Source: Rhizophagus irregularis (taxonomy: Eukaryota). Taken from it: DNA of 64,000 bases. The stretch is from positions 310,001-374,000 of the forward strand of contig NC_089429.1 of the NCBI RefSeq assembly GCF_026210795.1, read 5' to 3'. Below the pieces are notes generated by a model that was not told the origin of the DNA, did not search any database, and saw nothing but the letters and a program-made list of their open reading frames with translations. The translations under genes and the position numbers were made by a program. Below, one piece after another: positions 70 through 35,523 of this stretch (position 1 is its first letter; each line of letters opens with the position of its first letter).

Positions 70-1934
70 ATACCGGGTACGATAACACATGAACTTGTAA
101 AAATTTGATTTCATTATAATATCACTAATATCACTATATCACTATATAGCCGTAATTTGTGATGCTTATAGAGACAGAATCTATATTATGACTTGTTGGT
201 AAATATTGAAATATATAAATTTATACCTATGTACGATATTCTATAAATAATTGAGCTATAGACGCGTCACAATATTGTAAAAATCGAAAGTATAGTTAAA
301 CTGATTTCTTTTAAATTTCATTGATTTGGATAAATATTTCATTTTTCTTTATGGACAAATATTTTATAAAAAAAAGCCTTGGTTGCAAAGCCACTAATCA
401 ACTGCTAAGCCATTGTTGTCGCAGAAAATTTGTTGTTTACAAATCGGAAAGGGAAGGTAAATCATGACTTTTTAATTTTTACCGGAATTAAAATGGCTAA
501 TCTAATAAACCTAAAAAAAGTGTTCTTTGTTTAAAAAAATGTTTTTGATGTTTACATTAAAAAAAAAAAAATTAGCAAATAAAAATTTCCATCTTTATAA
601 TAATAATTTCCGATTTCCGAGTTCAATTCATATTGCTAATAAAATAAAATAATATTTATTGAGTAGCTTTACAATCAAATAATTTATTAGATAATAATTA
701 TCTTGTAATAAAATAATTTGATAATATTACTTATTTTTACTTAATAATTTGAAAATAAATGTTTTGAATATGTGGGGTTATATTATTATTTATTATTATT
801 AAATTCTTAAAAAAAAATGAAATTTTACTTAATTTTTAATGATTTTGCAAGTTTTACCCTAAAATGAAAAATATTTTATATTTTAATATTACTTTTTTTT
901 GAATAATCTATTGATTTATATTCAAAAGTATATATTGTATAAATTTTAAGACCTTTAATTAATATTTTTATCTGAAGTGATTTGCTAATTATTTGCAAAA
1001 TATTAAGCTTTATAATAATTATTTTTTAAATATTTAAATATAAATTTGATTTGGTCAAAAATTGATGTATTTACCTGCTTTAATTACTATATAAATTACA
1101 ATTGATTTTTTAAAAAATAAAACTAATTAATTATAAAAAAATTTTGGAAATAAAAATAAAAAAAATGATAATTTTATAGGATAATTCAAATTATTTTAGA
1201 ATTTTAGTATAAATATAAATATTTATGTTAAAAAGTATAATTTTATATCAAAAAAATTAATTAACTTTAATATTGTATTAATTAAATAAACTAAAATAAG
1301 TACTTTTTAACTAATATTATAATATAAAAAGATTATCTATTATCTTATTAAATAAAATATCTAAACTTGAAAATTTTTAAAAAAGTTATTTTATATTATT
1401 TATAGAATAATAATCTGACAAAAACTTTATTTTTTAGAAGTTTATTATAATTTTATATTAATATTATTAATTTATATAAATTTAAACTGTAAATTTATTA
1501 TATATTCTAATATTTTATAAATTTTATACAAATTTTTATATAAAACTGCAATATAATTATTAAATTTATAAATAAATAATTATATTATTACTTAGTAATA
1601 AAAAAATTTACATATATTATATAATTATTAAAGTAGTAATTTGAAAAAAAACTTTCTTGTATTTATAAAGAAAAAAAATATTACCAAAAAGAAAATAATA
1701 ATAAAAATTTATAATATATATGATTAAAGGTAGGTTTCAATAAAAATGTCAATCTGGTTATCTAGTTAAATTACATGATTTATATTAGTAAAATTTATTT
1801 ATATTTTTTGTGAAATGGTATTGCTAAAAAGAAAATGATTTGCATACTATATGTAATCAAATAAATAATAGATTAAATGGATAATTAGATCTTATTTCTA
1901 TATATATAATAATTACATATATATATATATATAA

Positions 1935-2111
1935 AGATCAATCAAAAGAATCAAGCATATAATTGAAAAATTTTTGAATCCTATTAGAAGAAAACGTATT
2001 ACAGTGGGACATATTGCATATCTTATTAATCATGTTCTTATCCCAAGAGTGGTATATGTGGCCTAATTAATGACATTATCAGAAAATGAATGGAATCTTT
2101 TGTTTACTCCA
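1935..2111 (+). pseudogene. Decayed fragment, probably of a non-LTR retrotransposon ORF
   Basis: Translates as IKRIKHIIEKFLNPIRRKRITVGHIAYLINHVLIPRVVYVA*LMTLSENEWNLLFTP with an internal stop. It resembles the region just downstream of the RT domain in fungal LINEs (from memory) and is interrupted by the palindromic MITE. Confidence 0.5.
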
Positions 2112-2633
2112 CATCAGGAAATTTGTTTAGGCATAATTTAGTGTAATATTTCGAAGGTGGTGTAAAATTTCGAAATATTACACTAAAAACGTAATATTAC
2201 AAAAGTTTACGCTCTTAAATTTGAATAATTATAGTAATTTAAGAATATCTCGCTATCTACTGATCCAATCAAGACGATCTATAGCTCATTGGAATCAGCT
2301 CATCAAGACGAATCGAATGGTAGTAAAATCTTATCTTTACGTTCGATAGATGATTTTCTATTAATTTAAAACTTTACTGCATACTATAGAGCGTTCTATC
2401 AACTGTAGAAATGCGATTTTACTACCATTCGATCCGTCTTGATGAGCTGATTCCAATGAGCTATAGATCGTCTTGATTGGATCAGTAGATAGCGAGATAT
2501 TCTTAAATTACTATAATTATTCAAATTTAAGAGCGTAAACTTTTGTAATATTACGTTTTTAGTGTAATATTTCGAAATTTTACACCACCTTCGAAATATT
2601 ACACTAAATTATGCCTAAACAAATTTCCTGATG
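2112..2633. mobile_element. Foldback MITE with ~220-bp near-perfect TIRs (CATCAGGAAATTTG...CAAATTTCCTGATG)
   Basis: 2112-~2330 is the reverse complement of ~2415-2633. Flanks CA/TA fit a 2-bp TSD with one change. Shares CATCAG termini with the 14228-19223 element. Confidence 0.9.
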
Positions 2634-3314
2634 TAGTTAGTATATTATATGAAATTATAAACAATATATTATTATTAGTCAAATTTTTTTACTAATTACT
2701 TAGATATTTATCAGTTGATAGTAAAATAAAACCATTTTACAGTTCTAATAATTCATCTACTATCAGTATAAAATAATAATTGATTTAATACAATTTTACA
2801 TAATATAACTTTAACAACAGATCTAATATTAGTATATTTTTTTTTAAACCTTATTTTATTACAGAGTAAATTGTAAATAATTCCACATATTTCAAATAAG
2901 ATAGATATACTTTATATCATCTTACTGATCATTTATTGATCATATAATAACAATTTATTATCAAAAATGATGAATTTCTTTATAGGATAGTAATATAGAG
3001 TATTTTTTTTAAGTGATCTTCATATAGTAAAATATTTAAAAAAAATTTTGTAATACTAATTTTAGTATAATATAAGCTTTTGTAATATTTAATATATAAA
3101 AAAAGACTTATATAATTAAAAAGCTATAATTTTAACTTTATATTTTTTGACTTAAAATATTCTTTTTATTTAAAATTTTTAGTTTGAAACTTTTATATAA
3201 AGTTTTAAAACTTTTGCAAATGTTTATTTATTTCTGGTAAATGTAAAATAAAGAATATTGTTGGTTTTCATTTTATTGGTTTAATTTTGAGTCAATAATA
3301 GCCAAAACAGAACT

Positions 3315-5909: not shown

Positions 5910-8177
5910 TAGGGTGTTCAGGATAAAGCGATCACACTTTTTTCGCATTTTTTGCCATTTTTTTCACATTTTTGGTGTGACCACATTTTTTGGCAAAATT
6001 TCACATTTTTCACACTTTCTGCAGTAAATTAGATTTGATTGGCTGTAGATCTTATAAATCGATCTATTTTTTTTTCGTACAATATAATCAACTTTTTACA
6101 AAGATGGTTAGCGCTCATGTACATTTATCTCAAAGTTCCATATATCGAGAAAATTATATTCTTCAAGGCAGTATATTGTGGTGTCGATTTTGTAATATAA
6201 AAGTTGACCATAAAATAAAATCCATTATCGATAAACATCTTCAAACTTTAAAACATGAAAATAATAAAAAAAATGCAAATAATTCTAATCATTTAATTCA
6301 AAGAACCATACCTTCATTAACTGGAAATACTTTGAATGAAAAAGAAAAAATTAATATTGAAGTTGTTGAAGCATTCACTTTTACAGATATTCCATTAGAA
6401 AAGATTGAAAAACTCAAACCATTTTTGATGAAATATTGTAAAAATGGTATGTAATTTTTTAATTTATGTAATATTTTAATTTAATAATTAATTAATGAAT
6501 TAATTATATTTTTAGGAGGGTTAATTACTAGAGCAAATCAGCTTCGTGAGAAATATCTTCCATTATCATATGAAATAGAACTTCAGAACTTAAAGAATAG
6601 TATTATTGATAAGATTATTTGTATAACAATTGACGAAACAACAGATCATTGTGGTCGTCATGCTGTTAATCTTTTATTTAGTTTTGATAATCAAACTAAA
6701 TTGGCCGGGACTGAATTTTTATCTATTGTAAATGCTTCATCTATTTCCCAATTTGTCATGGATACACTTCATTTTTACAAAATTCCTTACAAAAATATTA
6801 TTTTTTTTATATCTGATAATGCTTCTTATATGAAATTGGCATATTCACATTTATCTCCTTTTTTACCAAGAATGAAACATAATTGCTTAGCACATATTCT
6901 TAATTTGATTGGGTTAAACATGGGTTGATTTTAAAAAATTTGAATTAGTTAATAGATTGGTTGCGAATTTTAAAACAATATTTGTTTATAATTCACAAAG
7001 AAAAATTGTTAAGGAACATTATCAGCGAAATAATATCAATCTCCTACTTTAGCACCATTACCAGTAAAGACACGATGGAATTCATGATTCTCATTTTTAC
7101 ATTGGATTAAACCTTTATATCCTTATGTTATTACATTTATTAATGCAAAATATTCTATTAATCATGATTCAAAAGCTATTCAATACCTTAATACTTTTTG
7201 TCAACACCAAAATCATATTTTATATATTAGAATTTTTATTTGTTTTATTACATATAATTGTGGCAGGTAAGAGAAAATTATCAAAGTAATTATACAATTG
7301 ATAATGTTACTAATCATTTATTGAATTTAATTAGATTGGTTAATGATTTGGAATTCTTTAAAATACGAAATAAAGCAATAGCTTTATTTGTTTATTCAAG
7401 AATAGTTGGCCTTCAAGCTTTTCTTTCATCAGGAAGAAGCACTCCTCCAATTTCAAATGAATTAAATCAAATATTAGCTGAAGCAAATTGTAATGAGGAA
7501 TCATTTGCCATGATATTTTCTCAGGCTTTTTCTTTGGCATATGAAAAATGCGAAAAACACTTATCTCATCATCTAGCTTTATCATTATTTAGAGCAAAAC
7601 AATGCTTTGATCCAAGATTTATTCAATCTAATATAGCACATCATAATATGACAGATTATGGAATTATTGAAGTACTTCATTCTCCTACTGATAATTTAAT
7701 TCAAGAATGGGCTATTTATTGTGGGCTTAATGAATCAGTTGAGGAATTAATAGATTTAGATGTATATTGGCGAGGTAAAACACATTTATTACTAGAACTT
7801 AGTGCTTTAGCTTTAGTATATATTTGGTTACCAGTATCTGGGGTAGATGTTAAACGTAGTTTTTCTAGCTATAAAAGCATTTTATCAGATAAAAGGATTG
7901 CACTTAAAGAAGAAAGTATTCAGATGCTCAATTTTCTTTATTTTAATTTAGGTGGTAATGTTAATTATGATTTATTAGATAGCGAATAATTAAATTTACT
8001 GTATATGTTAATAAATAAAATAAATAAAATAATAAAATTTGCGCTATTATAATATTATTAACTCCGGCCAAAATTACACTAAATCTGGCCAGAATTAAAA
8101 TCACACCAAATCACACTTTTTGTCTAAATCACACCATACTTTTTGGGTCATCGTACCATGAAATCCTGGATATCCTA
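5910..8177 (+). mobile_element. hAT DNA transposon (decayed)
   Basis: TIR TAGGGTGTTCAGG / CCTGGATATCCTA, perfect 8-bp TSD AACTAATA and an internal transposase remnant. Confidence 0.92.
6104..7989 (+). pseudogene. hAT transposase pseudogene (CGGBP1/ZNF862-like N-terminal Zn finger, DDE core, dimerisation domain)
   Basis: Motifs LWCRFC...KHLQTLKH, IDETTD, SDNASYM, CLAHILNL, TRWNS* and VDVKRSFS. Intron at 6447-6515. Contains frameshifts and a premature stop. Confidence 0.85.
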
Positions 8178-9174
8178 AACTAATATAAATTTTATATAAA
8201 ATTAATAAAATAAAATAAAAAATTTATTTAATAAAATTTCATATAAAGAGTTATTCAAAAATTTATAAAATAAAAATGAATTATTAATAAATGTTTTATT
8301 ATATATGTTTTATTATATATATTGAATTCTCTTTAGTCGTATCATCTCAAAGAGAATTTCTATAAAAAATAATCAAAAAAAAACATTAATAAATATTTCC
8401 TGAAAAAAAATTAAAAAAAGGTAAGTTTTCTAATGAACAAAACTTACCAATTCAAGTTTTTGGCCAATTCAAAACTTCTGAAAAGAAAAAAAAAATGTCA
8501 GTAAATATTATTTCCTAATTTAAAAAATAAAAAAAATGGAAATTTCATGATAAAATATATAAAACTTACTATTTTTCCAATATTTTAAATTTCAGAAGTT
8601 GGCTGCTTACAAAAAAGAAAGGAAATATTAGTAAATATATTTTAAAAAAAAGTTAAAAAAAAATAAAGTTTCACAATAGATGTTGTAAAACTCATCATTA
8701 TATCTGAAGTTTGATATCTACAAAAAGAAAAAAAAAAGAAATGTTAGTATTGTTTTTTTAACAATAAAAAATTAAAGTTTCACAACAGATGATTTTAAAG
8801 TTTTATCTTTAAAATTCCATTTAGAAAATGTTTAGGAATCTGCAGATCTAAAAAAAAAAAAATGAAACATTAGTCACATTTAGTTAAAATAAATTAAAGA
8901 AAAATTATTTTAAAAATTTCATTTACCTTCAAAATTCTATCTATTAATTATTTAAGAAGCTGCAGACTTAAAAAAAATAAAAAATTAAAACATTAGATAT
9001 GTTTTATTAAAAACAAACAATTAAAAAAATTTTGAAGTTTACCTTCAAAAGTCTGTTTCATATAAGAATGGATCTGCAAATAATTTTCAAATTCTGCAAT
9101 ATTGCAGATTTTGGAGTTGAATTGCGGTTAGTAGCCCGCAATTCTTGCTGACCATAACTGTCAGTTTCATACAT

Positions 9175-9925
9175 TTATAAAAACGCTGGAACTATAGGTT
9201 CCGGCATTTCCTTTTAATTTTTTACGCTTTTTTTTTTTTAAAAACCACGCAAGAACTATGGGTTCTGGTATTTTCTTTGATTTTTTTTTACATAAAAATA
9301 CTAATACTATAGGTTCTGGCATTTTCTTTTGATTTTTTTTACATAAAAATGCCAGAATTATGGTTCCAGCGTTTTTTTGATTTTTTTTATATAAAAATGC
9401 CGGAACTATAGTTTCAGCGTTTTTTTTTGATTTTTTTTTACATAAAAACGCCAGAACTATGGTTCCAGCGTTTTCATTTGATTTTTTTTACATAAAAACG
9501 CCAGAACTATAGTTTTGGCATTTTTTTAATTTTTTTTTATGTAAAAACGCTGGAACTATAGGTTCTGGCATTTTTTTAATTATTTTTTATATAAAAATGC
9601 CAGGATAATAGGTTCTAGCATTTTTTTTTAATTTTTTTTTATATAACAATGCCAGAACTATAAATCTCGATGTTTTTATAAATTTTTTATATAAAAATGC
9701 TGGAACTATAAATTCCAACATTTTTTTTAGACTTTTTTTTATTAAAAATGCCAGAACTATTAGTTCTGGCATTTCAATTTTTATTTTTTTATATAAAAAT
9801 GCCAGAACTATTGATTTCGGCATTTTTTTTTAATTTTTATAAAAATGCTGGAACTATTATTTCTGGCATTTTTTTTATTTTTTTATTAAAATTGCCGGAA
9901 CTATTAGTTCTGGCATTTTTTTTTG
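9175..9925. repeat. Tandem array of about 15 hairpin units, ~50 bp each
   Basis: Unit is approximately ATAAAAAYGCCAGAACTATRGTTCTGGCRTTTTT followed by a T-rich spacer. Confidence 0.9.
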
Positions 9926-10283
9926 CGGTTATAATAAGAGAAAATACTGTTTCTGGTAGTTTTTCCAATTACCGATCTATCTTTTTCTAAAAAAATAAAA
10001 TCATTTTTTTTTCAAATTTTATTAATGAAAAATGATTTTTTTTTTATGATTAATAATAAGAGAAATATATTTTTTAGTAGTTAAATAAAAAAAATTATAC
10101 TTCATTAAAAAAAAATTAGTTTTTTTTGCAAACATTCTGCAAATCTGAAACTATTTCGCAATCCTGCAAATATTCCGCAATTGAATTTGAATTGTGATAC
10201 TTTGGATATTTGCGGATTTGCAGAATATTTGTAGGATTGCAGATCTGCAGATCTGCAGATTTTAGATTTAAAAATCCGCAATG

Positions 10284-10580
10284 AGGACCCCGGATATCTC
10301 CAAAACAGGTCATAAGTCACACTTTCGGCAGATTGGCCCATTTTTCAGGGGTTCAAAAAATCGTTTTTTGTAAATATCTCGGCATCCAGTGGTCCAATTT
10401 TGATGAACTTTTTTTTAAATTGTAGAGCTAAATGAGGGCTACAAAATAAAAAAATGTTCATTAAAATTGAATTACTGGATGCTGAGATATTTACAAAAAA
10501 CGATTTTTTGAGCTTTTAGCAAAAAGGGTGTTTTTGGCCAAAAGTCCATTATGACCTTTATATTAGATATCCAGGGTCCT
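10284..10580. mobile_element. 297-bp AGGACCC MITE (copy 1)
   Basis: TIR AGGACCCCGGATATCT / AGATATCCAGGGTCCT, 8-bp TSD CCGCAATG/CTGCAATG. A near-identical inverted copy lies at 60005-60301. Confidence 0.92.
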
Positions 10581-13500
10581 CTGCAATGTTTTGCAATACC
10601 GTAAATTGCAATTATTCTGCAATTACATATTTGTAGCACCATCCTTAGTTTCATATACACATTTTTTGTGAACTTCTAAATAGGTTTACAATTATCTAAA
10701 AGTATTATGCATGCATTATCTACAGAAATACTTTTAACAAATCTTGATTTAAATTGTTTATTGTTAAATGATATACATTCCAATTCTCAAGCCAATACTC
10801 TGATTCTACAAAAAGAATAAAGAAGATGTTAACAAACATCTCTTAATAAAAAATTGATTTTAAGTTTTAAAAAGAAAGTGAAACTCTTTAAAACTTACCA
10901 TATCTACTACCATATTTAAGATCTAAAGTCAAATATTATAAAAAAAAATTATAGGAAATATTAATAATGTTTTCTAAAAAAAACTAATTAGAAAAATTTT
11001 TTTTAAAAAATTTTTAAAATAAATGTCTTAAAATTTACCTTTTATTTTCCAAATCAAATATGTTAAGTCTTAAAAAAAAATTATAAGAAGCATTAATTTC
11101 CTAAAAAAAAAATAAAATAATATTTTTTTAAATATTTCAAAATATAGCATCACTTTAAAACTTACCATTTTTAATATTCTGGAATGAAAATAAGCTAAAA
11201 GATCTAAAAAAAAAAGGGAAATGTTAAAAACATTTTTTTATAAAAAAATAAAAATTTTTTTTAAAAGTTTGAAGTAAAATACTTCAAAATTTACCTTTTA
11301 CATTTTTTTGAAAGATCTATAAAAAATATAAAGAAAATGTTAAAATCGTTTTTTTATAAAAAAAAAATTTTTGTTTCAAAGTAAAATACTTTAAAATTTA
11401 TCTTTTGCATTTCCCATTTTCCAAAAAAAAGCCTATAGTTGGGGACACAACAAATCATCAAGTTGTTTCAAATTGAGATTTTAAAAAATCACGTGATATA
11501 CATAATACTAATTTGCGATTAGTTAAAAATCAAACTATATCGGGAAATGTTTTACTTTATTAATCATCAATATTTTCAAAAATAAAATCTGGAACAAATT
11601 TTTCACTGCTTTTTTCTTTTTTTAGCTATTTTTTGACAGTGTTGTGTTTGTCTCTTTAGTCGTATCATGGGAAAAAATTTTATGATCTGCATTACCTCTC
11701 AGCCAGTCATAGTTCTGGCCTAAATTATAGAATTTTGTCAAATTCTGGCCAGAATTAGATGTTTCAAATCCTACCGTTTATTAAGAAAATACCAAACTTT
11801 ATAGGCTAATAACTTTTGATCTAGATCACCAATCAGGATAATCTCAACTAAACATGGGGCCCGAAACCTCTATGAGGATTTCTGAAAGTTTCGGGTTTCA
11901 GAATATACGAATTGAAACTTCATCTGAAACCCTAAACTATTTCCAAAACCCGAAATGAAACCCGAAACCTGAAACTAGTTTCGGTTATCCCAAAACTAAT
12001 CCCGATACTCCGAAACTAATTCCGATTTCCGAAACTAATTCCGATTTCCGAAACTCTTTTTTATAAATTGATTGGATCAATTGGATCATCAATTCGTCAT
12101 TGTAGCTAAAAAAAGAGATTGATCATATTTGATAATCTTTTTTTTATAAGAATCAAGTCTTAAAAAAATGACGGATTGTACACCTTCAAATTCAAAAAAA
12201 AATAAGATTGCAATCTATGGCGGACGCCCAAAAAAGCCTATATGGAGATTTTTTGAACAAGGAGAGGAGATAGATAAAGGGCATTATATTGCAATATGTT
12301 TGGCTTGTAGGCAGACTTTCCGACCTGGAAAGACAACAGCTATGGAAAAACATATAATTAGTAATTGTTTAAAAGTAGACCATTCAATTTGTGAGGCCGT
12401 CATATATATGGTAGAAGCACGTGAACGTGAAATCTCTTCTGGTGCTAATATTAAACGCCAAAATAATGATCAAACTATTTTGGAAGATTTTTATGAAAGT
12501 TCAGATTTAAGTAAGGAACGAAAAGAAGATATTGATACAGCACTTATTAAGGCATTTGTATGTTGTGGTTTACCGTGGCATCTAGTTGAGCATCCATTTA
12601 TCATTGAATTATTTAAGCAACTTAGATCAAATTATAGTCTACCAGATAGGAAGACACTTGCTGATACTATGTTAACACAGGAAATCCTACGCGTTAATGT
12701 AAAGCTATATAGGTTGCTTGAAGAAGAGAGTAATTTAACACTAGGCAAGTATATTTATGCAAAAGTTATACAAAACTTAAAAATTTTAATATTAGAAATT
12801 TTTTTTTGAACTTTAATTAAGCCTTGGATGGCTGGACAAGCCCATCAGGGAAATCTCTCTGGAATTTTATTATTCATCTTGGCAATGGACGGGATATTCT
12901 TTGGAAAATTAGAGATTTTTCGGATGAAAGTCATACTGCTGAGTTTCTTGCTCAACAAATACAGTTAATTATTGAAGAAATTGGCATCCAAAAATTTGCG
13001 GGTATTGTAACAGATGCTGGATCAAATGTTCATTCTGCACGAAATTTAATTTCTGGAAAATTTCCACATATTCTTAACATTCGATGCATAGCGCATTCAT
13101 TGAATCTTATTACAAAAGATTTGATTAAACACACATTTGCAAAAAAAATTATTCAATGGTATTCAGTTATTGTGACATATTTTAAAAAGTCACATAGGCC
13201 TAAAGAACTATTAGAATTAAAAATTTTAGAAAAACAAATTGATGGGGGAGGATTAAAAACATATTTGGATACAAGATGGACAACTGTTTATGAAATGTTA
13301 AATTCAATTTCACGACTGGAATTGTGTCTCAAAGAAGTTGCACAACTTTTACTATTTGATTTTTTATTTTATAATAAACAAATTACATTGTTATTAATTT
13401 TAATTTTTTTTTTTATTAAATATTCTTATAGGTTATTAATGAAAACTCTACTATTATTACAAGTGAGGCAGTCAAAACTATTATTAATCGGAAACGTGGG

Positions 13501-14533
13501 TTTTTTAATGATGTCTATGATTTATCAAATGTTATGAAGCCTATTAGAGATGCTATTCTTAGTCTTGAAAGCAGTAATTCAACGCTAGCAGATTGCTATT
13601 TTTCTTTGGCGTGTCTTGGTCAATCAATTAACAAAATTTCTGAAAATGAAAATGTTAACTTTCGTCAGCATGCAATAAAATCTTTTAATGAACGTTTTAA
13701 AATGTATGATTTTGATGAATATCTCTTATCATATTATATTCACCCTGGTTATAGAGGTAAAAAAATTAATATTTATTATTTTAATAATGATAATATAGAT
13801 AGAAAATTAACAATTTTCATAATTAATAAATAGGTTCTGGTGTGAAAGCATGCCAATATCAAAGAATTCAAAGTGCAGCTGCACGTATTTGGCAACAAAT
13901 GTTAAAGATTTCTAACATTGCTGCTTACCTCAAAAAATTTAATTACACCAAAAAACAATCAGCAGAAATTCTTTTGGCGTAAATTGGTGAATTCTACTTA
14001 CAATCAGTACCATATAATACACCATATAATTCACAGGTAAATATACCACTTAGCTGATGGAAGATGTGTACACCTGTTCCGCCTTATTTACAACTGCTCG
14101 CAATCAAATTATTCTCAATTATTCCACATGCAGCTAGTTGTGAGAGGGTTTGGTCGATTTGTGGATGGGTGGTTGGAAAAAGGAGAACGCGATTATTAAC
14201 TGATAATTTAGAAGCTATAGCAAAAATCATCAGCAAGTTTTAAACAGGCGTATAAAGTGTTGAAAAATGCCATGTGTTGCTCAACGCCAAAAAACGTAGG
14301 GAAACGAAACGAACCCTTTGTCAATCAACGCTACTTAAAAACGTTTAAAACCGCATAAAACAACACCAATTTAAATGTAAAGCTACACGTAGTAAAACAA
14401 CAATAGTTTAAAAACGCGTATACAATGTATAAAAACGCGTATATTGATATTAAAAATGCGTCAAGCAATGGTTTTTTAGTCATCGTACAATAGTTAACAT
14501 TGTAGTATTAATTTATAAACATATATTTTATTG

Positions 14534-15389
14534 CAGTGTTCGGAAATGACCTGGTCATTTGACCATTTTTCGGATTAGGAGTCATTTGGTCAAATGACAC
14601 CCCATCATTTGGCATTTGGCATTTGAATTATTCGCGAAATGACAAATGCCAAATGATTGGGTATCATTTGACTGTCATTTGCGTCCTTTGTCATTTGGTC
14701 ATTTGTCATTAAAATATTTAAAGATTATTGGACAATTTATAATCACGTGATGTACAAAAAAGGAAGGACGTAATCAAAATAATCACAAACAGAAAAAATT
14801 TCACCGAATTATTTATTTTTTACTGTAATCTGAAAATAATAAATAACACAACCATAATTATTAAAGTGATAATATCTGATATGTTATTTATTATATATAA
14901 TTTTATTATATAATTATATGCATAAATAAATATTATGGCCATCTTATGATTAAATAAAGACAACAATTATATGTAAAAATGGGGAAAAATGGGATCCACT
15001 ACATGTGTTACAATTAAATATTTTATTGCAAAATTATTAACTTTTATCTGTGTGGATAAAATGATCATTGGTGAAATAATTACAAGTGAAATAATCCTGT
15101 CTATAATAATATTATTAACAAATAATAACCTGTAAAAATAATACCAAAATCACGTGATTAAAAATCTTTACTACTATTGGAACTTTTTTGATTATATATA
15201 TTAAACCAATTTTGTTTTAATATTTTTGTTTTCTTAATTAAAATAAACAAAATAATTAATAAAAATTCTCAGAATATTTAATATTTTTCAAATGACTTAA
15301 ATGACAGGTCATTTGAGTTGCAAATGACAAATGACAAATGACTTGTCATTTGAGTCATTTGTTCATTACAAGTCATTTGCTGAACACTG
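14534..15389. mobile_element. hAT-type MITE nested in the 5-kb element
   Basis: TIR CAGTGTTCGGAAATGAC / GTCATTTGCTGAACACTG, perfect 8-bp TSD TTTTATTG and GTCATTT subterminal repeats. Confidence 0.93.
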
Positions 15390-17179
15390 TTTTATTGTAT
15401 ATTATTAATATATATATTATATAAAATGTGTAAATTTATTTATGATAAAATACGGATATCGAATACTGAATATATTATCAATGTAAATTACTCTTGTTAT
15501 AATTGGATTGCCGCGGATTTTTAAGCGATCAATGTCTAAATTTCCGTTGACAAAGCGCACAGTGGCTTAGCGGAATATGAGGTGGGATGTGATTTTAACA
15601 ATCAACTAATTGATCTTTCTACGCGATAATTATATTAATATATATTGTCTAATGTAAATCTATATAATTAAATAAAAAAAAAAGTTTTCGAATATTCGAA
15701 AACAATTATTCCTAAAAAATGAAAGAAATGTTTAATTAGTAAAAAAATAAAAAAAGATGGTAAAGTTTCGCAATGAAACTTACCATTTTAAATTCTAACG
15801 CTCCTAATCGACACCTCGGAAGCCCTGAACCTATAAAAATAAAAAAAAACATTAGACAATGTTTTAAACTAAAAAAAATAAAGTTTCGTAATACGAAACT
15901 TACAATCCAATCAATCCAATTATCCCAAGTACCCGAAGCCTACAAAAATAAAAAAGAAAACATTAGTAATAATATTAAAAAATTGATAAAGTATCGCAAC
16001 ATTTTGTTGCGAAACTTACCTATCACCATCCGGAATTCAAAATATCCTGAAGCCTAAATAAAAAAATAAAGATAATGGAATGTTAATAACCTTAATTAAA
16101 AAAAATAAAAAAATGGAAGTTTCGTAACGAAAAAATGTTACGAAACCTACCATTTTATATTTCCAGAAACCAAACCTGCAAAAAAAGAAATGAAACGTTT
16201 AGTTAAACGTTTCTTAAAGAAAGAATTAAAAAAAAACTTACCGTTTTCCAAAATTCCAAATCCGGAAATCGAACCTACAAAAAATAAAAGAAACGTTCGG
16301 TTAGAACGTTTCTTAAAGAAAAAAAGATAAAAACGAAAGTTTCTTACGAAACTTACCGTTTAAAGTCCCTCTTCTTAAATTTCCCGAAACCTAAAAAAGA
16401 ATAAAGGAAACGTTAGTAAGAGTTTTCTAATAAAATAAAAAAAATATTATTAAGTTTCGTAACGAAACGAAACGTTACAAAACTTACCCAACAGTTCGTC
16501 CATTTTGAACTCTCCGATCCTACAAAATGGATAAAGGAAACGTTTAGTAAACGTTTCCTAATAAAAAATTAAAAAAAAAATTAAAAAATTACCCTTCGAA
16601 ACTTACAATATCCAAGATCCGAAGTTGAACACGCCGAAGGTCCTACACAAAGAAAATATAGGAAACGTTAGAAACGTTTCCTTATAAAAAAAAATGAAAA
16701 TTTTTTTTTTAAAAAGTTTCAAAGCAAAATGCTTCGAAACTTACCCTTTTCCCGGCCGTTTCCCAAAAAGAGACCTACAAAAAAAAATAAGATAAACATT
16801 AGAAACGTTTTCTTATAAAAAAAAATGAAAACAATTTTTTTTTAAAAGTTTCAAAGCGTAAAATTACGCTTTGAAACTTACTCTTTTTCCCGTTTCCCAA
16901 AAAAAAGACCTACAAAAAGAATTTAAAGAAACGTTAGTAAACGTTTCTTAAAAAAAAAATATTAAAGAATAAAGTTTCGCAACGTTTCGTTGCGAAACTC
17001 ACCATTTCGTCTACCCGAAAAACCCGTAGACCTACAAAAATAAGAAGAGGAGAAACGTTAGTAAAGCGTTTCTTAAAAAAAAAATTAAAACAATAAAGTT
17101 TCGCAACGGACTCACCTATTCTACCCAAAGTCGAAATCCCGTTTAGAAAACGTCTAGGAATTCGCAGACCTAAAAAAGA

Positions 17180-18190
17180 AAGAAAAATGAAACGTTAGTC
17201 ACGTTTCGTTAAAAAAAAATGAAAAGACAAATAATAACTCAAAAGCGTTAAAAAGCGTTTCGTTAAAAAAAAGAAAAAATAAAAAAATTGGAACGTTAAC
17301 CAGCGTTCCATTAAAAAAATAAAAAAAATTATATTACGAAACGTTAAAAAGCGTTTAGATTAAAAAAGAAAATCGGAGCGTTAGCGGCGTTTGATTAAAA
17401 AAATGAAAAAAAGTTAATACTTGAAAACGTTAAAAAAAGCGTTGAACAAAAAAAAATGTAAGCTAGAAACGTTGTAAGCGTTATTAAAAATGAAAAAAAG
17501 TTATTAGCGAAAGCGTTAAAAAAAGCGTTTCGTTAAAAAAAATGAAATAAAAAAAACAATCGGAGCGTTATCCACGTTAGATTAAAATTTTTTAAAAAAA
17601 CAATATTTGAACGTTTTTTAAGCGTTCCGATTAAAAATGAAATAAAAAAATTAAGAAAATGGAGCGTTAGCCGAACGTTCGATTAAAAAACAATATTTCA
17701 AGAGCGTTTTTCGCGTTCGATTAAAAATTAAAAAAATAATAAATCGGAGCGTTAGCAAAAGCGTTCCGATTAAAGAAATTTTTTTTAAAAAAAAACAATA
17801 TTTGAACATTTTTCAACGTTCGATTAAAAATGAAATAAAAAAATTAATCGGAACGTTAACGTCATTAAAAAAAACAATATTTCGTTAACGTTTTCAACGC
17901 CTGATCAAAAAAAAATAAAAATAATAAATTTCGAACGTTTTCAAACGCCTCGATTAAAGAATAAAAAAAACAATATTTCTTAAAAAATGAAATAAAAAAA
18001 TTAATCGAACGTTAGCTAACGCTCCGATTAAAGAAATCAATATTTGAACGTTTTAACGCTTAACGATTGATGAAATAAAAAAATTAATCGAACGTTAGCC
18101 AACGTTCCGTTAAAGAATTAAAAAAATAATATTTCGAACGTTAACGTTCATTAAAAATGAAAGAAAAATAATCAGAAAGTAGCCCGTTCC

Positions 18191-18244
<54 letters not shown>

Positions 18245-18400
18245 AAAAAAATAAAAAATAATCAACGCTTCGCAGACGAAATTTAAAAAATTTAAACGCA
18301 GCGTTACCGATTAAAAAAATTAAAAAAAAGAATAATATTTGAAACGTTACTAAAAAAGCGTTTCGTTAAAAAATGAAAGAGTAGTTTCGCAATGTTTCGT
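17180..18400. repeat. Degenerate tandem hairpin repeats (AACGTT/AGCGTT cores between A tracts), including a 49-nt A run at 18194-18242
   Basis: Repeated GGARCGTTAG..AACGTTC units fill predicted intron 1. Confidence 0.8.
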
Positions 18401-18529
18401 TGCGAAACTTACCAGAAGTTTGATACCTTCCAACTTTTTTCCGTATAAGGCTCATATCTCAGGAATTAATAACCTTATATTACGGAATTTACAGAGTTTT
18501 TACATGAATAACGGATAAAACTTTTTATA

Positions 18530-18780
18530 GGATGAAGGGGAAAACGAAAGGGTTATGGGAAAATGAAAGGGAAGGAGAGAACGAAGGGGAGAACGAAAGT
18601 GTAATAGGAAAACGAAAGGGAAGGGGAGAATGAAAGGGTTATGGGAAAACGAATGGGAAGGGGATAACGAAAGTGTAATAGGAAAACGAAAGGGAAGGGG
18701 AGAATGAAAGGGTTATGGGAAAACGAATGGGAAGGGGATAACGAAAGGTAATGGGAAAAACGAAAGAGAAAAAGCAAAAA
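18530..18780. repeat. Purine-rich repeat containing two tandem 74-bp units
   Basis: Units start at 18592 and 18666 (AACGAAAGTGTAATAGGAAAACGAAAGGGAAGGGGAG...). Confidence 0.85.
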
Positions 18781-18859
18781 AAATTAAGCTTTGCTAAAAA
18801 AAGCTTAATTTTTTTTTTGCTATACCACAGTGGCGCAGTGGTAATTATTAATCCAGTAT

Positions 18860-18874
18860 CACGTGACACACGTG
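18860..18874. promoter_or_regulatory. Paired CACGTG E-boxes; candidate promoter of the microexon transcript
   Basis: TCACGTGACACACGTGA lies upstream of the first donor on the minus strand. The same motif occurs upstream of several host genes here (22011, 22051, 25249, 41563, 55477, 56423). Confidence 0.45.
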
Positions 18875-20172
18875 ATATATCATTACATAAAATACGTAAT
18901 GCTTAATATTAATTTTAATAAATATTTATAATTGTACAATGGTTAGATCGTGAGATTTGATATATTAATAGTGTAATTGAGGTGAATCCGGTTCGGTTCC
19001 TAAGGTGAGTAAAAATAAATAAATTAATGTAATTTATTTAGTTGTGTTAATATACAGTGCGTTGAACTACACATTAGAGTTGAACGACGCGTATATTAAC
19101 ATTATGTGTTGGTATACTCCAGTATACGGGTGTTGATTAATATTGTAAAATGCGTTGAACAACTAGCTGGTGTTGATCAATGCGTATACTGGTGTGAATC
19201 AACACTTTTCAAACTTGCTGATGATACATTCTTATTATATTGCCAATAGTAGATCTGAATTACCTAATTATAGTAAAGATCGAACTGCTGATGAACTTTG
19301 CGCAATTTTAAATGATGCTAATCTTTGTGATGATGATGAATATGTTGATGATTATAACGAAGAGAAAATGATAAAGTTGGTGTCAAGTCCACCTGTTGAT
19401 GATGATCGTGAACAAGTTCCATCTCAGAATTTGGAAATTTTACAAGTGCTAGATCTGGATTTAATGTTTAGAGATAATTTAACCGATAAGCAATTAGAAT
19501 TAGATGGGATTGGATTTTATTCAAGAGTAAGAGTAACAAGACGATTTTGATCCAGATTTATTGGTTCAAAATTTTAATTCATAATTAATATAATTTTATG
19601 TAAATATGTAATAACGTTTAAATTAGTATAGTATTCATATATAATATAATTTTAGTTATAAATATTAATAAAATTTAGTAAAATAACATAAAGTTTCGGT
19701 TATATTTCGGTATATAAGTTTCGGGATAGTTTTGGGATAGTTTCGGGTTTCAGATTTCGGAAAATAAATGCATATTCTGAAACTAAGTTTCGGTATATAC
19801 CTAAACCTAAAGGGTTTCAGGGAGTTTCGGTTTCATATCCCATGTTTAATTTCAACGCCATTTTGTAGTTTAAGTTAGTAACAATTAAACTATGTTGAGT
19901 TATTTTAAATATATGCATTCAAAATATTTTTATTAAATTTCTAATTTGGACAATTTTATTTGATGAATTGTTATGTCTCAAACCATACAAAAAAAATATA
20001 AAGGAAATATTAAAAGTATTTCCTTATAAAAATAAGAAATTTTTTTCAAAGCGAAATATTTCAAAACTTATTTTTTGTTATTTTTCTAAAAAAATTATAA
20101 AAAATATAAAAAAAAACGTTAGAATCATTTTCTTATAAAAAAAATGAAAATTTTTTTTTTTTGAAGTAAAAT

Positions 20173-20398
20173 AAGACCCCGTCTACTATTAAAATAGGTT
20201 ACTTTATGGTCTAAAGTAAGGTTTACATATAAAACTCTTTGAAGATCTTACTATAAAAAGAAATTTTATGTTACATTGTTATGATTTTTTTTCCTTTTTA
20301 GTCAATTAACCAATAGAATTTAAGCAAATCCTAAGGTAAGATTTCATATGAAAGTGAAATTTCTACTGGTAACATATCTTAGTAGTAGGTGGGGTCCT
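20173..20398. mobile_element. Degenerate AGGACCC-type MITE
   Basis: AAGACCCCGTCTACTA / TAGTAGGTGGGGTCCT with imperfect 8-bp TSD AGTAAAAT/AATAGAAT. Confidence 0.65.
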
Positions 20399-22010
20399 AA
20401 TAGAATACTTTAAATTTATAATTTAAGAAATGAAAAAAATAAAACTCTAGAACTATTTACAGAAAATGTAAATAATTTGATAAATTTTGTGATATAATGT
20501 TAATTCTAAAAATATGAGCCTTTTGCAGAAAAAAATGGAATATAAAAAATGAAAAAATAAAAAGTAAAGGACAAAACAAAAAGATAAGAAGAGGAGAGAA
20601 TGAAAAGAGAAGAATGAAATGAAAAGAAAAGAAAGAATAAAAAAAATTAAGATTTGTTAAAAAAAGCTTAATTTTTTTTGCTATACTGCAATCCACCTTG
20701 GTAATTATTAATCTAGTATCATGTAATACATGTGATATAGAGTACATTATATAAAACACATAATGCTTAATATTAATTTTAATAAATATATATATACTTA
20801 AATTAAATAGTACAGTGATTAGATTGTAAAATACGATATTGTAAGTTAAGATAACTAGCTCAATTTTTAAGGTGAGTAAAACAAATATTATATAAATACA
20901 TATATATATTGTATATAAAAATAAATAAAATAAATACTGGTAATATTGTAAATTATGTTGAATATACCCAATCAGCATAATTTTACTAAATGATTTTAAA
21001 GGGACAATTTTTTGTATAACAATTAGCATAAGTTAAATTTTTATCAAAAGACTAAACAAATTTTATTTAATAATCAGTATTAGTTAATTTGTGATTATTG
21101 ATTTTACCAATTTTTGCCATTGATTAAAAAATCTAATAATTTACATAACCAATCAACAAAAATCATTTTATAAGTTTTTAATAATTAATTCACATAACCA
21201 ATTGGCAAAAATCATGCTAAAAGCTCTTAATGGTTAAAAGTTTTGATTTTGACTAGTGAAAATATGAAAGAATGTCTAGTTATAATATAGGATTTACTCT
21301 AAAAGTAAATAATATTTTTGATTTTTAATAAAGTTACTGATTTTTAAAGAAACAAATTTAGTTTGTACAAAGAACGAATTTATTTTAAACTAGAAATTCA
21401 AGTTTTTTATTTTAAATCCCTTACTGTATATAAATAAGTTTTTTCAGAATATTATTATATAATTAATAGAGTTGTGCAACTCAACAAATTTTCTATTCCA
21501 TATGATCTAAAAGTATTTATCACTGGTATTACATCTTACTGCATTTTCACTGTTTATATTTATTTAAACTTTAAAGGACTTAGTTTTTTTTTTTACCACC
21601 AAAATTATTTTTTTCATATCCTTTTAAATGTTACCAGTTAATACATCAAATAAATTTTAATTATAAAAAGACAAATTTATTCTAAACTAGAAATCCAGCT
21701 TTTTTATCCTAAACCCCCTATATAAATAAGTTTTTTCAGAATAACCATTATGTAATTAATACAGTATAGAATAAGAACCCAGTCAAGCCGGTTAAATGAT
21801 ATTGAGTATGATATATATATATCATACTCAATAACTATATTAAGTCTATTTTAAGGACACTTTTTTATATAAATAATTAGTTTAAATAATTTCTATTAAA
21901 TTTAATATTTTATTGGTTGACTGGTAATACGGGTTACCAATGACTTTTTCCCTTATATCATATAGCTTTTAAAACAACTTTTTTAAGCCGCAAAAAAAGT
22001 CGACCCAAAT

Positions 22011-22096: not shown

Positions 22097-22172
22097 TATT
22101 TACGTATAAAAAAAAATATTTAAATACACTTATCTTATTTCTTATTGATTAGATAGTTTTAAAGTTTGCAGA

Positions 22173-23840
22173 ATGATTCCTATTCCTTCTATTCCTTCAA
22201 ACACACCTTCTAGAGTTCATATTACAATTTACCAAGACGATGCTCCATCTTCACGCAAAAGTAACAAACGTATCCTCAGTGATGAAATGGATGTTACACC
22301 TCATAGTAGAAAAACTATGCGTAATCGCAGTCCCTCTCAAAGTCGAACTCCAATGAATTCACTTCGTATTTCTGGCAAACCTAGAGTTCCATTTTATGAT
22401 AAAGTAAATTTAACACCTTATAATCCACACAAAGCCTTAATAAACAAGTCAAAGTCTACTTCTACGCCGAAAACTGCTAAAACCGTTACATTTAGCGATT
22501 CTCATACTACTTATGAAAACGAGGTTACTTCAGCAAATAAAAAATTCAAGAATGAGTCTGGTCAAGTCGTTAATATAGACTCTTATAGGAGAAGAATCGA
22601 ACAACTTGAAGCCGAATTGAGGAACCAAATAGATGAAAATCAGAAACAAACCGAAGAAGTTCAGAAATACCGCCAAGAAATCGAGAGAGCGCTCGAAAGA
22701 GCTAAGTGTAGGTATTTGTTCATTAAGTGTTATTTGCTATTTAAACACCTCAATAATGTATTGTTTTTTGTTTGTAAGATGTGGCTTTAGGTTATAAAAA
22801 CGAATTATATGGACCTGTTTATATCGATGGTGATCATAATTCTATTAATAAGTTATTGAGACACTTAGCCAAAGTTGTAGGTCAAGACGTCATTAATAGA
22901 TTTAGAGAAGAAACTTTGGTTGATGATGAATTACCTGCACTTAATCAGATTATTGCATGGTTTGAAGAATCAGGTAATTTTTCGCTAATAAAATTAACTT
23001 TTCAATATATATTCATGACACAAGAAAAATTCTTATATAGGTTTCTTGAAGTATGAGGTTCTTAAAGAATTTCGTGCTGCAAAGATGATCTTGTCACTGG
23101 ATCTAACTTATACGTTCGAAAACGTTAAGCGGGATAACAACAATATTTTCATTAAAAATAACTTGAAACCAATCGAAATCGAACCTCAAAAATTAAATCA
23201 CCATATGCAGAATGCTAATCGATTGGTATCTGTGTTTGGCTTACCAAACGGCTTTAGATACTTAAAAGCATTGAAATTGAGCAATATGCCAATTAAGGAT
23301 TCTTACTTTAACAATTTCCGGGGTCTAAGCCTGAATGAATTGGTTATTGACAATACTGGAATCGGGGACGAGGCATTGGCTTATCTTGTAGCACTAAAAG
23401 ATAATTTGTGCCTTTTGAATATCACTGGAAATATGAAAATTACTGATGATTCTATATTTATTCTAGTTCTTTTCGAAAAATTGATGGTATTGCTCCTGGA
23501 TGATACTTCTATTTCTATGGATGGAGTTCGCAAATTTGTTTCTATGACAGCCAGCATTGAGTTATCACAAATTTCTATCCCCTCATCATGCCGTAAATAT
23601 CTTAATAAACGAAAAGAAATCTATTGTGTTGAACATAAACAAGGAATGAAAGTTGATCCATTAGAAGTTAAATTTATGAGTCTTTCAGAGATTCGTCGAC
23701 AACTAATGTTCCATTATGAGGTTAATTCTAATATTAACATTGTTGGCTCTAAAGAAGAATTAGAAGAATTGTTGAGAGAGATTTTGAAACGGCGACGTGA
23801 CGATGGAAAGGCTATGTTGTTGACTGGTGGGCGTGATTAA
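22173..23840 (+). CDS. LRR (RNI-like) protein with disordered N-terminus and coiled coil; join(22173-22707,22779-22973,23041-23840)
   Basis: Three ORFs join in frame through GT-AG introns. LxxLxLxxTxIxD repeats occur in the last exon. Confidence 0.8.
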
Positions 23841-24224
23841 TACACCAACGATACATTATAAAGAAATTATAATTCTAATGAATTTATTTGATCTAATAAG
23901 CACAAATGGATGTTATGTATGAGTTTTTAATGATGGTCTGTAAAATTGATGAAGATTATATGTAAAGTATCCGCCATTATCTTTTATCAATATCAAAAGT
24001 TAATTTACAAATTTCGATCTAGCTACATTATATACTACATTATTTTTTTTATTTTTTTTTTAACGAAATATAATTTTAATAATTCTCAAAATTACTTATT
24101 AATCCAGATAATGTATGAAAAGTTGTTCTTTATGATTATTATAATACAAATAAAGTTTAAACAAGAGATGGATGCATGCATTAATTTCTTGAAACTATAA
24201 ACTATTTAAACCGAACTTTACTAC

Positions 24225-34416: not shown

Positions 34417-35523
34417 CAGTCAACTCCCTCTATAGTCACTCCCGTTATAGTCACATTCTACTATATAGTCACACCAGTTGAATGTTCAAAACACTTTATT
34501 ATTAAAAACTATCCTATATAGTCACAATCTATCTATAGTCACTATCACACCTATCCTCAAAAATCTTATATTAAAAAGAACCGTTTATAATCACAGTTAT
34601 ATAAAGAATATATTAAATAACTTGGCATCTAATAATCGTACAAAGATGTATCATAGCTTGTTAGAATCGTCTCACTGAGACGAATCGAATGGTGGTAGTT
34701 ATATCCTTTTCCGATCACTGGCTGATGAGTTATTCAACAAAATGTTAAGCATCAGCATTATTATATTTCTTAATTTATGTTTATTGCGCCATTTAACATT
34801 TTGCTAAATTACTCGGTACCTAGTGATTGTAAAAATACGATTAATAACTCGTTGGAATCGCCTCATCAAGACGAATCGAATGGTGGTAAGCTCATCTCTC
34901 TGTGATCAATATTGACGGAGTTACTACTTAAAAACCATTTAATATTTTTTAATTTCGGAAATTGATCTAGTGATTGGATTTCGATGTATCTTATACCATT
35001 AGATTCGTCGCATTAAGACGAATCGAATGGTAGTAAGATTGTCACTTTAGGATCAATATTGGCAGAGTTATTACACAAAAACCATTAATATTTTTTTAAT
35101 TTCGGAAATTAATCTAGTGATTGAATTTCGATGTATTTTATACCATTAGAACCGTCTCATCAAGACGAATCGAATGGCGGTAAGATCGTCTCTCTAAAAT
35201 CAATATTGGCAGAGTTATTACACAAAACCATTAATATTTTTTTAATTTCGGAAATTAATCTAGTGATTGGATTTCGATGTATTTTATACCATTAGAACCG
35301 TCTCATCAAGACGAATCGAATGGCGGTAAGATCATCTCTCTAAGATTAATATTGGCGGAGTTACGATACAATAAAGTTTTGAGTATAATTTTGGCTAAAA
35401 TTATGTTAATTTTTGGCCGGAATTATGATATACTTATATAAGAAATTTTTTATATAGTCACATCTCTTTATAATCACCAAATATGGACTGTCCCAAATGT
35501 GTGACTATAAAGAGAGTTGACTG
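34417..35523. mobile_element. pogo/Tc1-like non-autonomous element with internal ~147-bp repeats
   Basis: TA|CAGTCAACTC...GAGTTGACTG|TA, TATAGTCAC subterminal repeats and five palindromic-motif units. Confidence 0.9.

Follow-up and report, generated by a model that had tools for sequence, protein, structure and literature searches.

What can a transposon use thirteen introns for when only microexons lie between them? This question is raised by one locus in the window, by which we mean the whole 64,000-nucleotide stretch of Rhizophagus irregularis DNA that was analysed. The window has a GC content of 26%, and the Pfam domains found in it are NST1, PPR, F-box/LRR and hAT; the Atlas clusters of its F-box protein are mostly from Mucoromycota. 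A host gene at 22149-24000 (+) is expressed and spliced and has no Pfam family at the curated cutoff, and a 147-bp tandem repeat (3.5 copies, 88% identity) lies at 34855-35363. An earlier note, made from the sequence alone, described the locus as a mobile splicing cassette. The core of that description stands: the array is mobile (it recurs in 19 of 24 metagenome loci) and non-coding, and its splice signals are what persists. The peptide and repeat-spacer readings that accompanied it are not supported.

On the minus strand, a check of the sequence found all 13 donors and all 13 acceptors where the earlier note had placed its canonical-looking introns (Table 1). The donors (18412, 17115, 17002, 16881, 16744, 16606, 16487, 16356, 16241, 16150, 16019, 15903 and 15783) all read GTRAGT or GTAGGT, the acceptors (17170 ... 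15712) are all YAG behind a T-rich tract, and all 26 splice ends are intact in the carrier, which we call element A. Intron 1 is 1,243 nt long and the other twelve are 66-107 nt, matching in size the spliced host introns nearby (67-87 nt). The exons between them measure 54, 29, 28, 30, 36, 32, 34, 33, 25, 34, 36 and 47 nt; each of the twelve begins with G, seven have lengths that are not multiples of three, and the spliced core amounts to 418 nt, exactly as had been claimed. A GT donor, a branch point, a pyrimidine tract, a YAG acceptor and host-like spacing are marks of a U2 intron, and the array has them all. The region at 18758-18930 is 82% identical to an old copy of the cassette, copy B, which also has the same lone outward-facing donor on the other strand. 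This donor suggests that the putative promoter may work in both directions.

Table 1. Features of the cassette, its carrier and the surrounding insertions (window positions)
Feature	Position	Strand	Remarks
Element A, non-autonomous DNA transposon, 4,996 bp	14228..19223	.	PlavakaB-type ends; 13-bp perfect TIR; 2-bp target duplication (AT)
Left TIR (3' end relative to cassette)	14228..14244	+	
Right TIR	19207..19223	-	
Host hAT element, transposase gene interrupted by element A	11849..19848	+	zf-BED, DUF659; TIR and 8-bp duplication, one mismatch
hAT-type MITE, 856 bp, later insertion in element A, outside cassette	14534..15389	.	8-bp target duplication
Copy B, old decayed cassette copy in three pieces (~20900-19850, 11450-10800, 9100-8360)	8360..20900	-	~12 units
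Lone outward-facing splice donor GTGAGT	19004..19009	+	same donor in copy B; putative function
Promoter-like block, pyrimidine-rich 37/74-bp tandem repeats and hairpin	18534..18840	-	putative promoter
TATA box (predicted)	18522..18529	-	from sequence only; ~115 nt before first donor
Exon 1, holds hairpin	18413..18500	-	5' end placed from TATA box
Intron 1, T runs and CpG-centred hairpins in an array; contains 7 CTAAC	17170..18412	-	CpG o/e 4.39
12 microexons and 12 hairpin introns (66-107 nt)	15712..17169	-	
Microexons 1-6	17169-17116, 17031-17003, 16909-16882, 16774-16745, 16642-16607, 16519-16488	-	
Microexons 7-12	16390-16357, 16274-16242, 16175-16151, 16053-16020, 15939-15904, 15830-15784	-	
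Last exon with AT-rich 3' region, lacking any long ORF	15391..15711	-	putative 3' end

The earlier note had placed the array, as principal cargo, in a non-autonomous TIR element, and this carrier proved to be real. The accessible part of PMC12730594 defines PlavakaB transposons by CATCA..TGATG ends and target site duplications of 2 or 3 bp. The perfect 13-bp TIR of element A starts with CATCA, which gives the element 5'-CATCA..TGATG-3' termini, and AT stands on both sides as a duplication of the expected size. If element A is removed together with one AT, the interrupted hAT gene regains its reading frame, whereas the other three of four offsets fail; thus, the target duplication is 2 bp. The shell of element A is another member of known transposon kinds, and its termini match PlavakaB. 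Its left arm is 67-73% identical to the arms behind the arrays in metagenome loci L015, L016 and L017. Two other candidate boundaries were rejected: the CACAGTGG sites at 15558 and 18826 have the same orientation and no duplication, and copies A and B share sequence past a putative Helitron end near 18855. The region at 8360-20900 is a four-level nest made up of copy B, then the hAT element, then element A, then the hAT-type MITE, so that element A is younger than copy B, which is split by the hAT element and by other insertions. Between the pieces of copy B sits an array in which a 51-bp unit of hairpin plus T run is repeated 14 times in tandem (9230-9925); it lacks splice ends, and its hairpin resembles exons of locus L001.

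The intron unit recurs far outside the window, in other transposons that come from soil samples. An HMM built from the 12 short window introns only was run on 24 metagenome loci that came from one exact-pattern scan. It found the same intron array in 19 of the 24 (18 contigs, with L016 and L017 on one contig), giving 186 units, 86 of them non-redundant, with E values down to ~4e-14. Matches of this kind on independent metagenome contigs confirm that the intron unit is non-random. Four of the remaining loci are GC-rich and without any unit, and L018 has one weak match. All strong full-length units of the window fall within the arrays of elements A and B, and in the 19 loci the units likewise form arrays. 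No arrays were found in the 15 loci of a viral scan or in the prokaryote genomes scanned. In one further run (X21) from the organism of the window, 712 contigs match the stretch, which points to many relatives and gives no copy number. Loci L012 and L017 have CATCAG ends; L002, L022, L023 and L024 have hAT-type ends, and L003 belongs to the same family by eye. Thus, one intron type occurs in the shells of two superfamilies. The last exon of the hAT-type family enters a hAT C-terminal stub in frame, with the final transposase codons (E 0.019, below the curated cutoff). In the oriented loci that were read through, no long ORF lies directly behind the array.

Two of these loci have features of their own. 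L017 carries at 8200-9050 (+) a second, divergent array with another intron type (T-rich, with weak hairpins) that faces away from the main array; in the hAT-type family this second intron type precedes the hairpin introns. As read from the sequence, the opposed arrays suggest two-way promoters. A TET/JBP dioxygenase ORF (PF12851, E 1.7e-9) lies at 711-2189 (-) of L017, just outside the PlavakaB-type end at 2821. L001 changes gradually along 450-2880 (+): hairpin repeats whose splice ends are weak or absent give way to full intron units, a transition that may record the origin of the unit. It also has a second type of donor hairpin with the donor in the loop.

Mean column identity among the units is 58%, and when positions were compared across these diverged units, as the earlier note had proposed, GT, AG and the branch A were found to outlast nearby G/C bases. 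In 17 of the 19 array loci (L015 and L017, near-duplicates of L016, were left out), the acceptor is preserved in 93 of 96 distinct units, as counted from read-outs that extend past the HMM match. Donors counted in such read-outs have GT at a fixed offset in 84 of 95 cases; inspection by eye finds GT at a different offset in 10 of the remaining 11 (~94/95). All 34 aligned introns carry GT and branch AA without change. In the HMM alignment, where local matching trims mismatched ends, the GT and AG columns reach 100% as against 0.71-0.89 in most other G/C columns. HMM matches are biased towards intact units, and the array in the window had been chosen for its intact look. With anchors blind to splice sites, some of which fall outside arrays, the first AG follows 78 of 93 branch hairpins at 12-34 nt, and 54 donor hairpins have G in 43 and T in 49 at the donor positions. 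The distal units of element A and of L008 have a decayed branch hairpin, and GT, branch A and AG remain. Copy B serves as the decay control: read by eye, its 12 donors include at least 3 that have become AT, and of its 12 acceptors at least 2 are gone, G>A and C>T being the prevailing changes; its CpG o/e is 0-0.48, compared with 1.6-4.4 in the array and intron 1 of element A. Broken units that several copies have in common (donors or acceptors are deleted in L012/L013/L020 and in L017) indicate that in some families the constraint on splice sites is not absolute.

The exons are non-coding. Lengths divisible by three occur in 34 of 106 non-redundant exons (P 0.64), in a set that contains a few overlapping or mis-called rows, and 12 equal-length homologous exon pairs displayed no consistent codon-position bias. 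The frame-preserving lengths and codon-position bias by which a microexon protein gene is recognized are missing, and the idea of a peptide generator that works through exon skipping is not supported. It had also been claimed that the spliced core gives only short ORFs. This overlooked a 101-codon stop-free run across most exons, rich in Phe-Gly and Lys-Arg. We rejected this run as a protein, the P value being 0.052 with dinucleotide shuffles and 0.24 with shuffled exon order. A 73-codon ATG frame begins in exon 1. The comparison of the layout with repeats and spacers fared no better. When the window exons were searched against the rest of the window (61 kb), the longest matches were 10-13 nt, within the range of shuffles, and for 44 of the 93 locus exons a relative exists in some other element family. 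The exons are therefore better read as diverged tandem copies than as captured spacers; exons 4 and 5 of the window form a tandem pair.

Eleven of the 12 short introns fold at z <= -2.3, with near-equal values on the opposite strand, whereas 1 of 6 spliced host introns does so; among the exons, 2 of 12 have hairpins at z below -2. Hairpin 1 pairs donor position +3 to about +15, and hairpin 2 surrounds the branch point. Positions +3 to +8 of the donor are paired, and the branch A often is. In a test set of 34 hand-picked introns (10 of the 12 in the window and 24 from the loci), 87% of cells pair, and 94% in the donor helix. Double changes number 53, against 18.6 in shuffles, and slid controls reach at most 54% pairing; these controls are lenient, because the structure was drawn from the same related sequences and some branch-helix rows are out of register. 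Compensatory changes are present in the donor hairpin. Those in the branch helix are less reliable, and a mutation process that corrects palindromes could also yield double changes. In sum, the introns have the stable secondary structure that is characteristic of introners. Rfam gave no match to the introns at the gathering score and 14 weak matches far below threshold, and no known small RNA, the mark of a snoRNA or miRNA host gene, was found inside them. In the arrays of L008 and L017, 13 donor hairpins have a 3' arm that reaches ACTTAC and pairs with the whole donor; we take this arm to mimic the 5' end of U1.

Splicing of the array is predicted. Of 24 runs identified, all of them contigs, six are on record as RNA, and five of these were compared with the window. 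In these five RNA runs (assembled contigs from mixed samples at low depth), none of the joints listed (15 of 43 in one comparison and 2, both unrelated, in the other) matches any of the 13 array introns, and missing cover in such contig-only RNA is no proof of absence. Host introns at 22.7-24.8 kb, at a distance of 4-6 kb, had been spliced in all three runs compared there. The RNA matches within the array are few short pieces from relatives that contain intron sequence, and one contig from a polyA run (X19), too short for interpretation, has a related intron with exon-like loose ends.

Based on these observations, we have proposed a model in which a spliced non-coding transcript mimics a gene and helps the element to evade silencing, and to which we give somewhat less than an even chance. 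We favour it because the ability to be spliced has been retained while the exons yield no product and the introns hold no known small RNA. The model is also consistent with splice ends that are kept at 58% unit identity and lost alongside CpG in copy B, with introns of host-like size, and with the lack of a coding signal and of long ORFs behind the arrays. We propose that a single intron-plus-exon unit multiplied head to tail and that internal capture, in the course of gap repair, may have carried the cassette from one element family to another. RNA polymerase II would start at the predicted TATA promoter, and removal of the 13 introns would leave the mature RNA free of their hairpins. Dense co-transcriptional splicing may shield the nascent RNA from silencing and methylation guided by small RNAs. 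The element would then pass as a host gene, unmethylated and accessible to transposase from autonomous copies, and master copies with working splice sites would keep their ends open and leave more descendants.

The accessible parts of two reports describe how introns hinder nuclear RNAi in the worm, as the Aquarius/EMB-4 barrier (PMC5554785), and how they hinder HUSH silencing in human cells (PMC8770142). In the arbuscular mycorrhizal fungus R. irregularis, CpG methylation is bimodal and small RNAs are made at transposons, according to the available portion of PMC8647823. That protection by introns carries over from worm and human cells to these fungi is something that we infer by analogy. Several points weigh against gene mimicry. 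No array joint is among those listed for the five contig-only RNA runs, and host introns were spliced in three. Pairing at the donor and, often, at the branch A might delay splicing and instead promote silencing, the hairpins fold equally on both strands and may thus act as DNA, and the high CpG of element A compared with copy B may reflect age only. A bolder version, in which non-autonomous DNA transposons of at least two superfamilies in mycorrhizal fungi share a purpose-built module of intron camouflage, an empty gene grown to a dozen or more introns that has splicing as its only product and shields them from RNA-guided methylation, is conceivable but rather doubtful.

Other explanations make different use of the same evidence. 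The TATA box, exon 1 and array are arranged like the 5' end of a gene, and the last exon of the hAT-type family stands in frame with the final hAT transposase codons. The array could therefore belong to autonomous elements, either as their multi-exon 5' UTR or as a side transcript with a regulatory role, with splice sites selected for the transposase mRNA and inherited by non-autonomous copies. We consider this unlikely, because no array precedes the transposase of the host hAT element (left end at 11849, first ORF starting at 12150), the HMM has no match at the second hAT ORFs (5981-7989), no long ORF lies directly behind the array in the loci read, and the same leader would be needed in two transposase superfamilies. 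It is also possible to place selection on the DNA. CpG-centred palindromes and T runs might be binding sites for transposase or for a demethylating or anti-silencing protein, or might aid the pairing of ends, while the intron signals ride along or only clear hairpins from stray transcripts. VANDAL/VANC motif arrays are an analogue. Such a role would fit hairpins that fold as well on either strand, and also intron 1, the 5' region of L008 and the 51-bp array at 9230-9925, all of which are hairpin-plus-T-run arrays without splice ends. The TET/JBP gene that adjoins the L017 element counts in its favour too, as does the statement, in the part of PMC12730594 at hand, that TET-bearing Plavaka families are all PlavakaB. 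Yet the branch hairpin has decayed in distal units of element A and in L008 that keep GT, branch A and AG, and the T runs and splice ends are all on one strand, which makes selection on the DNA quite improbable.

The hairpins over the donor and branch point could instead work against their carriers, by stalling spliceosomes or by being diced, so that the array would trigger silencing or supply small RNAs and restrain the family. In Cryptococcus, stalled spliceosomes are a route to silencing. Donor positions +3 to +8 lie in a helix that is 94% paired and has compensatory changes, folding is far commoner than in host introns (11 of 12 versus 1 of 6 at z <= -2.3), and the RNA matches contained intron sequence. 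We give this explanation a small chance, since it would be costly for a multi-copy mobile family, the intact copy is CpG-rich, stems of ~10-14 bp are short for dicing, and no Rfam family reached threshold. The chance is slighter still that the array is a protein gene of microexons, decayed or combinatorial, which the element captured. The Phe-Gly- and Lys-Arg-rich stop-free run speaks for such a gene; the shuffles in which this run is not significant, the exon lengths and the homologous pairs largely refute it.

Gene mimicry by an intron array has partial counterparts among known systems. Pack-type TIR elements are non-autonomous shells with captured gene pieces, and their cargo can be shared between families; the cargo of element A is internally amplified and contains no recognizable piece of a host gene. 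Host genes of snoRNAs and miRNAs such as GAS5 have short non-coding exons, with selection on introns and splice sites. The array differs from them in that it has no Rfam snoRNA or miRNA at threshold, its introns are copies of one unit, and it is mobile. PlavakaB (CMCT clade) resembles element A in its termini, its 2-bp target duplication and its fungal host, but element A has no transposase or TET/JBP gene inside, and the accessible description of PlavakaB includes no intron array and draws its Plavaka families from Agaricomycotina (PMC12730594). Plavaka transposases are recognized by C(2)C and H(3-4)H motifs. Introner-like elements and sister (stw)introns of fungi are proliferating introns and have in common with the array that many spliceosomal introns resemble each other in sequence and contain internal inverted repeats. 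As far as the available text of PMC8469720 goes, introner-like elements stand singly at new positions in host coding genes, whereas the units of element A stand head to tail between non-coding microexons in transposons and probably multiplied by tandem duplication. Aquarius/EMB-4 (PMC5554785) and HUSH (PMC8770142) concern introns that mark RNA as self or hinder co-transcriptional silencing; in the portions at hand, both belong to the host side in animals, and no transposon-borne intron array is described. Glomhopper has introns in a coding Crypton gene, unlike the array, in the accessible part of PMC13465315, and the corresponding part of PMC10234402 has no description of such an array. Nor did the literature searched describe a transposon-borne intron array, although Repbase records or supplements could hold such elements unannotated. 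The intron-array cargo is thus apparently undescribed.

Unclassified repeats make up 24% of the R. irregularis genome, as given in the accessible part of PMC8647823, and among such repeats in these genomes the arrays recur as a component that has apparently escaped description. They could give rise to spurious orphan gene models and provide a ready stock of splice signals. As public methylomes, small-RNA data and long-read data exist for this fungus, the camouflage idea is directly testable. If the idea is true, a mobile element whose dozen empty introns are maintained by selection would be a parasite that exploits the blunting of silencing by introns, and transposons would possess an anti-silencing system that is built from splice signals and uses no protein.
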